Source: a virus
Lineage: Duplodnaviria; Heunggongvirae; Uroviricota; Caudoviricetes
DNA length: 4,873 nucleotides
IMG/VR virus record: IMGVR_UViG_2634166457_000016
Span: 1-4,873 of that record
Reading direction: 5' to 3' (one strand)
A program made the position numbers. Shown one piece after another: positions 1-3,000 of this stretch. Each line of letters opens with the position of its first letter. Positions within the stretch are counted from its first letter, which is position 1.

Positions 1-3000
1 GCAGACCGCCACCAGCATACTGAAGCAGCGACACAAAAAATACTTGCGCCGCTGCCTCCACGCCCACCAGCAAAACCCGCCACAGGAAAAGACGGTGGTC
101 AGCATTGCCGTTGATCCGGAGTCACCGGCTCAGTATCTCCAGCGCCAGAAACCACAACGGGAAGAGATGCCTGTATACACGCGCTGGGTAAAAACGCAGA
201 AATGCATGACGTGCGGTAATCAGGCAGATGATCCGCATCACATCATTGGTCATGGACTGGGAGGAATGGGAACAAAGGCTGATGATTTGTTTGTTATTCC
301 GCTGTGTCGCAAATGCCATAACGAACTACACGCAGGAGTAAAAGATTTTGAAGACAAACACGGCAGCCAGTTGTTGTTGCTGATTCGTTTTTTAATGCAC
401 GCGAGAAATTCGGGTGTTTTGAAGTGGAAAGCATAAATGACTGAACGCATAGAATTTGTTTTGCCTTACCCGCCAACGGTGAACACTTACTGGCGTCGTC
501 GTGGCAGCACATATTTTGTATCAAAAGCCGGGGAGCGTTATCGCCGGGCAGTGGCGCTTATTGTTCGCCAGCAGCGGCTGAAATTAAGCCTGTCCGGAAG
601 GTTGGCAATAAAAATTATTGCAGAACCACCGGATAAGCGCCGCCGTGACCTGGACAATATTCTGAAAGCGCCGCTGGATGCGCTGACGCATGCGGGGTTG
701 CTAATGGACGATGAGCAGTTTGATGAAATCAATATCGTTCGTGGTCAGCCAGTATCTGGTGGACGTCTGGGGGTGAAGATTTACCCCATAATGCTTGAAG
801 GGCAGGTCAAAAAATGAAACTGGAAGATTTACCGAAATACTACTCCCCAAAATCCCCCGGCCTGACCGATGCGTCCGCCTCGACATCAAAAGATGCGCTG
901 AGTATCACTGATGTGATGGCCGCGCAGGGCATGACACAAAATCGGGCTGAGATGGGTTTTTCTGCGTTCCTTGGGAAAATGGGCATTAGTATGAATGACA
1001 GAGAGCGGGCAACAGAATTGCTGACAGAATATGCACTCAGTCGGTGTGATCGCGTGGCGGCGTTAAGAAAACTCCCGGCAGAAATAAAACCGGCAGTGAT
1101 GCGTATTATGGCTTCGTATGCGTTTGAAGATTATGCCCGTAGCGCGGCGAGCAAAAAACAGTGCCCCTGCTGTCACGGAAAAAAATTTATTGAAAGCGAG
1201 GTTTTTACAAACAAGATCCAGTATCCGGATGGTAAGCCGCCGGTATGGGCAAAGTGTACGAAAGGTGTGTATCCGTCTTACTGGGAAGAATGGAAAAAAG
1301 TCAGGGAGGTGGTAAAAGTTGCCTGTCCGGAGTGTGGCGGAAAGGGTGAGGTTTCCACCGCCTGTAAGGATTGCCGTGGGCGTGGTGTCGCCATTCATCG
1401 TGAAGAGTCGGTAAAACGTGGTATGCCTGTTATCAGAGACTGCCAGCGTTGTGGTGGTCGTGGCTGTGAAAGACTACCATCAACGGAGGCATTTAATGCC
1501 ATATGCAAAGTGACGAGAGCTATCACGCTTGATACGTGGAAAAAATCAGTGAAACGCTTTTACGATACGTTGGTGGTTCGGTTTGACATTGAAGAGGCAT
1601 GGGCGGAGCGGCAGTTAAAGAGGGTAACGCGATAGTGTTGTTGATTTTTCCCGAATCTGTGGTAAATTTGCTCTAACGATGGGCGTTTTATGCCTGACGT
1701 TAGAAGATTTTTTACACCCCGCCGCCTGGCGGGTTTTTTATGACTGAAATCGCGTCAGTACAGTAAACGCGCTGGTGGCGGTGAATACCTGTCTTTCAGC
1801 TTGCTGGCTTTTTCGACAAGAGTTATTGGTGTGTCACGTTAACCGGAAAAGGGAAAAAGACATGCTAAAACAGCAGGATATGACAGAAACCGCCAGAGTA
1901 GTGTTTAATGAATTAAGCGTTACCGAACCGGCGACAGTCGGGGAGATAGCGCAGAATACTTACCTTTCACGCGAACGCTGCCAGTTAATACTGACCCAGC
2001 TGGTTATGGCGGGTCTGGCAGACTATCAGTTCGGTTGTTACAGACGCCTTCAGTCCTGAAGGCTTTTTTATTTGTGGTAAATGGGCGGCTGGTGGGTGTT
2101 AGCGGCACCTGTCAGTCCTTTGCTTATGTGTTGATGATAATTTACCTTTTGGGGCTATAATTGAACTAACCAATTGCTAATGAAAGTAAAATTATAATGG
2201 TTGTTGTCTGTTCAGTTATCATGGTTTGCTCCCCAATTAATATTTTTCTTGAAAAGGATACGTTGTCACTTAAGCCCGGCTCAGTCGTTCTGGCCACCAA
2301 ATGCATCAGGGCGCTTTTCCTTATGCATTATGGCAAAGTTAAAATTTTCGATATAAACCATTCCATAGTAAGTCAATATCTGGAAATTCAGCATAAGCTG
2401 ACAAGAACTCATCTGACTGACGTTCCGCTTTATCTGTCACTGGAACCCAACAACCCTGCGTTGGCTGAGGCTTTAATTACCAGCCAGAGATTTTCCGGAG
2501 ATACCACGGATATGTTTCTTATGATGGCATGCCTGTCGCTGTTTGAATCAGATGAACGGATATTATTATTTTTAAGTGGATGTTTATCCAGTATAAGTGC
2601 CAAAGTCAGGGCGATAATTCAGACAGATATATCAGCAAGCTGGACGCTTGGTGCGATTGCGTTACGCCTGCATATGAGTGAGAGTTTGTTAAAGATAAAA
2701 CTGAAAAATGAAGGGCACATGTTCAGTCGCTTGTTGCTGGAAGAGCGGATGCGTGTTGCTGTCAATATGTTATGTTCCCGGCATGGATATGGACAGGCTG
2801 TAGCAGAAAAATGCGGTTATTCAAGCTGGTCCTACTTTATTTCTGTATTTCACCGCTATTATGGCTTCCCGCCAGACAGATATGTATCCAGGCAAGGGCT
2901 TGATTATTGATTTTCATCTGATTATTATTTTTTGACCCGGCCCTTTAGCTCAGTGGTGAGAGCGAGCGACTCATAATCGCCAGGTCGCTGGTTCAAATCC

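Follow-up and report, generated by a model that had tools for sequence, protein, structure and literature searches.

A Q-dependent late cassette comprises a Q gene, the promoter PR', a sigma-dependent pause element, a terminator and the genes that follow (PMC9388147). In lysogeny pR' is constitutively active and its transcripts end at tR' (PMC7547250). Here we analyzed a stretch of 4,873 nucleotides (nt) from the IMG/VR record IMGVR_UViG_2634166457_000016 (positions 1 to 4,873, hereafter the window), which represents the late-control and cargo region of a lambdoid Escherichia coli prophage and carries all its listed genes on the + strand. We found that positions 1636-1740 very probably (about 0.85) constitute the late-gene control cassette of such a prophage, served by an antiterminator of the Q-lambda type. 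A Q gene of the PF03589 family, i.e. the Q-lambda family (PMC9388147), lies directly upstream of a sigma70-type pR', a pause element and an intrinsic terminator. A preliminary description of this DNA had already read the region as a Q-controlled late cassette, and the sequence supports that reading, as all sequence components of the published definition are present and conserved. The proposed control of the cargo by Q is well supported by homology, and the locus, which joins a long-arm Q-lambda subtype to psrA, the gene of an AraC-like regulator, is a further example of a textbook regulatory kind.

The Q-pR'-pause-tR' cassette of lambda, with its 6S RNA leader, shares with the window the Q family, the -10 hexamer TAAATT, an RNA start AACGATGGG in the same register, an intrinsic terminator and, presumably, late genes downstream. 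In the window, the Q gene (814-1635, 273 amino acids) matches Pfam PF03589 Antiterm (E=1.8e-49) and lambda Q (PDB 7UBM, E=4.5e-39). The -35 element TTGATT (1641-1646), read from the sequence, begins six bases 3' of the Q stop codon and aligns with lambda TTGACT. It is followed by a 16-nt spacer TTTCCCGAATCTGTGG (1647-1662), whose last bases include the TG of an extended -10 (1660-1661), and by a -10 TAAATT (1663-1668) that is the same as that of lambda pR'. The promoter-like element proposed after the Q gene is TTGATT-16-TGgTAAATT at 1641-1668, and it shares GGTAAATTTGnnnnAACGATGGG exactly with lambda pR'. When this 23-nt lambda-derived pattern was searched for, the window gave a single match, at 1661-1683 with 0 mismatches, and none of 200 shuffled sequences matched even with 2 mismatches permitted.

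Alignment to lambda pR' shows full agreement over the -10 and the 9 bases transcribed first, with the register unchanged. The lambda pR' transcript starts at the first A of AACGAT, which fits the ~194 nt distance to the lambda tR' T-run that we observed. By this register the start site in the window is predicted at A1675, within the interval 1670-1680 expected earlier, and the RNA would open with AACGATGGG, which matches the sigma70-dependent pause element of lambda pR' exactly. The pause element AACGAT (1675-1680), followed by GGG at 1681-1683, occupies the same register in lambda and P22, and is also kept in Kpn_R1, mEp237, mEp460 and K-12 Qin. The role of this element has been described (PMC9388147), and by analogy a sigma70-dependent pause is expected near 1690-1691.

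Both a terminator scan and folding point to a tR'-like intrinsic terminator at 1718-1739 (CCCGCC-GCCU-GGCGGG plus T6): the stem 1718-1723/1728-1733 has six G-C pairs, the loop is GCCU, the T6 tract lies at 1734-1739, and the hairpin has a free energy of -12.6 kcal/mol (z=-2.55). The RNA running from pR' to tR' is predicted to be 64-67 nt long, most likely about 66, which makes the earlier estimate of a short terminated RNA of about 60 nt essentially right. The terminator thus stands at about +44 to +65, versus about +194 in lambda, where the position is consistent with the T-run distance.

The elements, their conservation and the order of the genes are what the sequences show directly. A close set of 78 loci from IMG/VR, whose Q is 94-99% identical, comprises 31 sequence variants. 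Across it the -35, the -10 and AACGAT are almost invariant, the -35 being unchanged in 29 of the 31 variants, and the terminator stem is kept, with changes falling mainly in the loop or preserving wobble pairing. Moreover, of 5426 complete E. coli genomes, 1512 (28%) carry the 136-nt element, and none has it annotated as a feature. As these IMG/VR relatives are all 94-99% identical, they say little on deep conservation, and distant phage genomes were compared instead. Behind diverged Q homologues, a -10 is followed after 5-7 nt by AACGATGG, with an intrinsic terminator next, within about 35-65 nt. This layout is seen in Klebsiella phage Kpn_R1 (Q 62% identical), mEp237 (55%), lambda and P22 (40%), mEp460 and phiSTEC1575 (38%), and at K-12 Qin ydfT. 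The cassettes of P22 gene 23 and of mEp460 and K-12 Qin ydfT resemble the window in the Q-lambda family, the AACGATGG pause element and a short leader RNA; however, their Q is only 38-40% identical, their spacers and -35 differ, and in P22 the lysis genes follow almost directly. In Erwinia phage vB_EhrS_59 (Q 52%), the spacer motif and the terminator are kept, the -10 is TATAGT, and AACGAT was not found. ES18 and Fels-1, whose Q is more distant, have a terminator, and AACGAT was not found in them.

This conservation bears on the possibility that an intergenic spacer resembles a promoter and a terminator by chance. Terminator-like sites are indeed more frequent in the window than expected (13 seen versus 5.9), so some of them arise by chance, and the promoter falls under the threshold of a generic scan. 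However, the absence of the 23-nt pattern from the shuffled sequences, the persistence of the elements at 38-62% Q identity and their near invariance in the 78 loci make this explanation highly improbable, and the conservation effectively refutes it. The near invariance of the -35, the -10 and AACGAT, together with the spread of the element over complete E. coli genomes, indicates that the promoter is not a chance match.

The Q protein itself shows a distinctive architecture. Its alignment with lambda Q covers residues 1-113 and 182-273, and the ~68 residues in between (114-181, window 1153-1356) form an insertion that adds two further CxxC pairs, with a weak match to the DnaJ CXXCXGXG motif. 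The insertion is placed where the zinc-ribbon arm of lambda Q begins, and the two additional CxxC pairs make two zinc ribbons likely in the window Q. In lambda, the zinc-ribbon arm makes contact with both sigma region 4 and the Q-binding element. Q proteins of the long form are widespread, being found in ES18, ST104, Fels-1 and mEp460, and the Q proteins of lambda and P22, which are 40% identical, do not have the insertion. Among the residues named as needed for antitermination (PMC9388147), G39, L202 and T206 are conserved in the window Q, and V6, C53, H56 and L58 are replaced by L, L, M and I, respectively.

Lambda Q binds between the -35 and the -10 (PMC6266700, PMC9388147). The 16-nt spacer of the window differs from that of lambda (TATTGAATAAAATTGGG, 17 nt), and its conservation makes it a candidate Q-binding element. 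The motif TTTCCCGAA within it is kept where Q is 52-62% identical (Kpn_R1, mEp237 and vB_EhrS_59), and lambda, P22 and mEp460 have other sequences in its place. Its conservation therefore tracks Q similarity, the behaviour expected of a cognate Q-binding element, and TTTCCCGAA in the spacer is probably the element recognized by this Q. Besides the spacer, the window departs from lambda by the extended -10 TG, by the 68-residue extra zinc-ribbon segment of Q, and by ~2 kb or more of cargo before the lysis genes.

From lambda we infer a start site, a pause, Q binding and Q-dependent read-through in the window, and the following course of events may be proposed. The sigma70 polymerase would start constitutively at about A1675 from the extended -10 promoter; sigma region 2 would then rebind the -10-like AACGAT (+1 to +6) and hold the polymerase at about +16. 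Without Q, the polymerase would escape and stop at the 1718-1739 hairpin and its T6, freeing an RNA of ~66 nt. After induction, Q would bind the spacer between the -35 and the -10, probably at TTTCCCGAA, and load onto the paused polymerase, which would then pass 1718-1739 as well as the terminators at 2046-2069, 3203-3228 and 3425-3444. One late transcript would carry a small open reading frame (ORF), psrA, the tRNA genes ileZ-argN-argO, an STnc100-like element and nanS-p, and would continue to the lysis and head/morphogenesis genes. During lysogeny, the cargo would probably be expressed from its own promoter-like sites, with the terminators shielding it against the constitutive pR'.

Several points weigh against a functional Q-controlled cassette. 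First, pR' scores 8/12 against the consensus in a generic promoter scan with a threshold of 9/12 and is thus absent from its list, so that its assignment rests on lambda homology and conservation. Second, the candidate Q-binding site is unlike that of lambda and is proposed from conservation, and the 68-residue insertion in the DNA-binding arm of Q could alter the loading geometry. Third, the window ends inside nanS-p, and the lysis genes lie beyond its end. Finally, the closest full-context relative, in which Q, the TrmB-like ORF, the AraC gene, the tRNAs, the esterase, holin, lysozyme, terminase and portal are all co-oriented, has a frameshift in a Cro/CI-family regulator gene and a truncation in a LexA-family repressor gene. 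With these two genes broken in the relative, inducibility of the prophage cannot be assumed.

This last point opens the way to reading the cassette as a relic of a defective prophage, where Q is either absent at all times or produced independently of induction, the cargo is expressed from its own promoters only, and pR' yields just a short RNA. Along with its two broken regulatory genes, the relative also has a frameshifted S49 head protease gene; Sakai Sp4, whose psrA is identical, is heavily disrupted by insertion sequences; and both psrA and the tRNAs have promoter-like sites of their own, with terminators between them and pR'. However, the Q ORF is intact and 94-99% identical in 80 viral contigs, the promoter, pause element and terminator are nearly invariant, and another prophage in the cell could supply a Q of this type that acts in trans on the window pR'. 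We regard a relic as unlikely, though likelier than the other competing explanations, and favour a Q-controlled cassette.

The short RNA predicted from pR' deserves attention in its own right. Its 66-nt form has a predicted folding energy of -21.9 kcal/mol (z=-2.8) and comprises a 5' hairpin, a single-stranded linker AGAAGAUUUUUUACA and the terminator, the 5' stem-loop spanning 1675-1701 in the minimum-free-energy fold and being closed by AACG/CGUU. All seven Q-lambda-type leaders examined, namely the window and six others, start with AACGAUGG and have CGUU 15-20 nt downstream, so that a 5'-terminal hairpin with this closure is predicted in each, with an A/U-rich linker and then the terminator behind it. 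The 3' half appears to be kept for pairing with the sigma-constrained 5' end. A cassette of the same design, apparently intact, is present in K-12 MG1655 Qin on the minus strand, ~70-140 nt downstream of ydfT, with a TAAAAT -10, AACGATGGG and a terminator; it is predicted to give an unannotated RNA of ~65 nt.

In Shiga toxin (Stx) phages, the pR'-tR' RNA StxS is an Hfq-dependent small RNA (sRNA), and antiterminated promoters have been proposed as a source of sRNAs (PMC7547250). By extension, the ~66-nt pR' RNA stopped at 1718-1739 might be an Hfq-dependent trans-acting sRNA of the lysogen, and short leaders of the Q-lambda type might form a class of such RNAs, a proposal that we put forward tentatively and consider rather improbable. 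Its seed would be the variable linker, here AGAAGAUUUUUUACA. If true, the StxS precedent would extend to non-Stx prophages with an unrelated Q family. A related reading, compatible with Q control, is that 1675-1740 was chiefly selected as a free-standing regulatory sRNA of lysogeny like StxS, and that control by Q is secondary. The recurrence of the hairpin-linker-terminator layout with its U tail in seven Q-lambda-type cassettes, the precedent of Hfq-dependent pR'-tR' RNAs (PMC7547250) and the presence of the element in 28% of complete E. coli genomes would all suit such a role. However, no Rfam family matches at E<=1 within 1636-2196, 1636-1760 included, and no similarity was found to the Sp5 StxS region or to HnrS; moreover, the pause element by itself already constrains the first 9 bases, and any short leader ending in a terminator would show this layout. 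Selection chiefly for an sRNA appears doubtful, and Q control remains our preferred reading.

Identity of the window RNA with either known sRNA can be rejected. Only fragments of 7-11 nt, arising by chance or from terminators, match the interval between Q and ileZ in Sp5, and the likeness to StxS lies in the way the RNA is made and not in its sequence. HnrS, described in 2026, is a 66-nt multicopy sRNA encoded in prophage late regions, equal in length to the predicted window RNA, and has 15 nt that are perfectly complementary to the last part of the mazF coding sequence (PMC13502914). Nowhere in the window does complementarity to the mazF 3' end exceed 7 nt, and a complement to the hha ribosome-binding site was also not found. 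A probable HnrS sequence was recovered from IMG/VR via CTACCCAATCAGTAC and is unrelated to the window RNA. It occurs in E. coli prophage contigs, where it was found through its complement to the mazF stop region (CUUCUACCCAAUCAGUAC), lies 3' of a -10-like box TATAGAAT and ends in a terminator CUGCUGUG..CACGGCAGUUUUUUU, and it bears no relation to the pR' leaders of the Q-lambda type. An IMG/VR scan with a 15-mer lacking the stop codon matched only unrelated metagenomic contigs.

Concerning the genes behind the terminator, the small ORF, the AraC-like regulator, the tRNAs and nanS-p are indeed all co-oriented on the + strand, as had been reported. The small ORF (1862-2059, 65 amino acids) encodes a winged-helix protein of TrmB type, with a weak Pfam TrmB match (E=0.0024), and its homologues are annotated as TrmB family in RefSeq. 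Its variable columns are distributed as 2/6/18 over the three codon positions and there are 0 internal stops, which indicates that it behaves as a coding sequence. A second intrinsic terminator (2046-2069; -10.5 kcal/mol, z=-3.65) overlaps its stop codon. Next come a promoter-like site ATGATA-16-TATAAT (2134-2161), scoring 10/12 in the promoter scan, and psrA (2197-2910), an AraC/XylS-family gene with Pfam HTH_18 and HTH_AraC domains. The same scan identified another promoter-like site at 2900-2928, within the 3' end of psrA and ahead of the tRNAs. Both sites fit the suggestion that the regulator and the tRNAs also have promoters of their own.

The three tRNA genes (2939-3188), with anticodons CAT, TCG and TCT, are equivalent to ileZ-argN-argO. 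The CAT-anticodon tRNA (2939-3014) is called Met by ARAGORN, and RefSeq calls the identical gene ileZ (tRNA-Ile, presumably lysidine-modified). A third intrinsic terminator lies 3' of the tRNAs (3203-3228; -13.8 kcal/mol, z=-3.95). Between the tRNAs and nanS-p sits an element of the STnc100 sRNA family (3265-3455; Rfam RF02076, 138 bits against a gathering score of 47, E=1.9e-31), which has its own terminator at 3425-3444. A minus-strand terminator (3484-3463) faces this element and suggests a second small transcript, on the minus strand. The gene for a NanS-p type sialate O-acetylesterase (Pfam DUF1737 and SASA) starts at 3678 and runs to 4873, with its 3' end beyond the window. Upstream of Q, the window also includes genes for a DUF968/HNH protein (44-436) and for RusA (437-817).

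Comparison with other phages reveals a sharp mosaic joint in this region. Phage matches to 1560-2260 mostly begin at 1715-1719, i.e. at the terminator hairpin, and more than 20 Stx2 phages, phiP27 and Sakai Sp4 share the window DNA only from that hairpin on, behind unrelated Q genes. It follows that Q travels with its pR' as a single specificity unit, and that terminator, small ORF and cargo form a block that recombines behind other Q types, as in phiP27 (a 126-amino-acid Q-like protein), Sakai Sp4 (a 123-amino-acid antiterminator) and phiSTEC1575 (Q ~38% identical).

The analogy to Q-dependent stx expression drawn in the preliminary description finds a close parallel in the Stx2a phage Stx2_EH1910 (LC567834). 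Its Q is 96% identical, and the same pR', tR', small ORF, three tRNAs and nanS-p are present; however, a DNA methylase gene takes the place of psrA, and stx2AB follows the tRNAs. In phiSTEC1575-Stx2k (OQ243220), the same tR'/small-ORF/AraC/tRNA block lies upstream of stx2k, whereas the region downstream of its Q matches that of mEp460, and its own pR'/tR' is located ~800 bp upstream, which makes the hairpin of the 1718 type a second terminator in this phage. The Stx phages 933W and Sp5 likewise carry cargo between tR' and the lysis genes, transcribed by Q-modified polymerase, and make a short pR' RNA in lysogeny (PMC7547250); they also have the ileZ-argN-argO cluster and nanS-p downstream. However, Sp5 has a short Q of 144 amino acids that was not listed by the Q-homologue search, the leaders have no sequence similarity, and the cargo is stx where the window has psrA. 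The pR' and tR' of Sp5 are 258 nt apart (PMC7547250). Among the 80 viral contigs with a window-type Q, the usual cargo is a methylase (50 loci), with stx2A in one contig and the AraC gene in none. Among complete genomes, the window-type Q is joined to the AraC gene in 13 only, and the AraC gene itself is present in 726.

The AraC-like ORF of the window is identical over 237 of 237 residues to the ORF containing Sakai Sp4 ECs_1087, and ECs1087 has been named psrA (PMC13502914). The regulator is thus PsrA by sequence. PsrA (EDL933 Z1789) is a regulator of the AraC/XylS family; it increases GadE and YhiF, and in this way reduces type III secretion (PMC10877973). The start of psrA is inconsistently annotated: Sakai ECs_1087 has 195 amino acids, yet the ORF is open and identical for 237 codons (28678-29391 in the Sakai sequence), and RefSeq gives 237 amino acids elsewhere. 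In Sakai Sp4 (ECs_1084 to ECs_1088), the identity extends to the upstream DNA, from about 2045, at the second terminator, through the psrA promoter-like site. The order of genes is also the same, with a DUF968-sized ORF (ECs_1082), a RusA-type endonuclease, Q, the small ORF, psrA, the tRNAs and a large ORF in the position of nanS-p. However, Sp4 has an antiterminator of 123 amino acids, a CAAX-protease gene lies between this antiterminator and the shared terminator, and the small ORF (28344-28583), although ~95% identical, is frameshifted by a 1-nt deletion relative to the window. The window and 16 other loci have an intact copy of this small TrmB-like ORF.

The 10/12 promoter-like site of psrA and the two terminators upstream of it suggest that its expression in lysogeny is autonomous and insulated. 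A burst of PsrA in a cell about to lyse may then have little regulatory consequence, and any physiological weight of such a burst, or of host reprogramming in a lysing cell, would be conjectural. In the literature searched (psrA with antiterminator; Z1789/ECs1087), we found no paper addressing Q control of psrA, and a 2018 comparison of pR' regions makes no mention of AraC or methylase cargo.

These results provide precise coordinates for a pR', a pause element and a tR' that over 1500 complete E. coli genomes carry without annotation, and flag a candidate short RNA. They also place psrA, which regulates acid resistance and type III secretion in enterohaemorrhagic E. coli, in the same Q-controlled slot as stx. 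From this position, psrA, the rare-codon tRNAs and the esterase should be co-transcribed if this prophage is induced, or if a co-resident prophage of the same type provides Q. The locus may therefore link SOS-inducing conditions to psrA dosage in a manner that is open to testing, and such a link would be a straightforward outcome of textbook lambdoid regulation and of known phage mosaicism.

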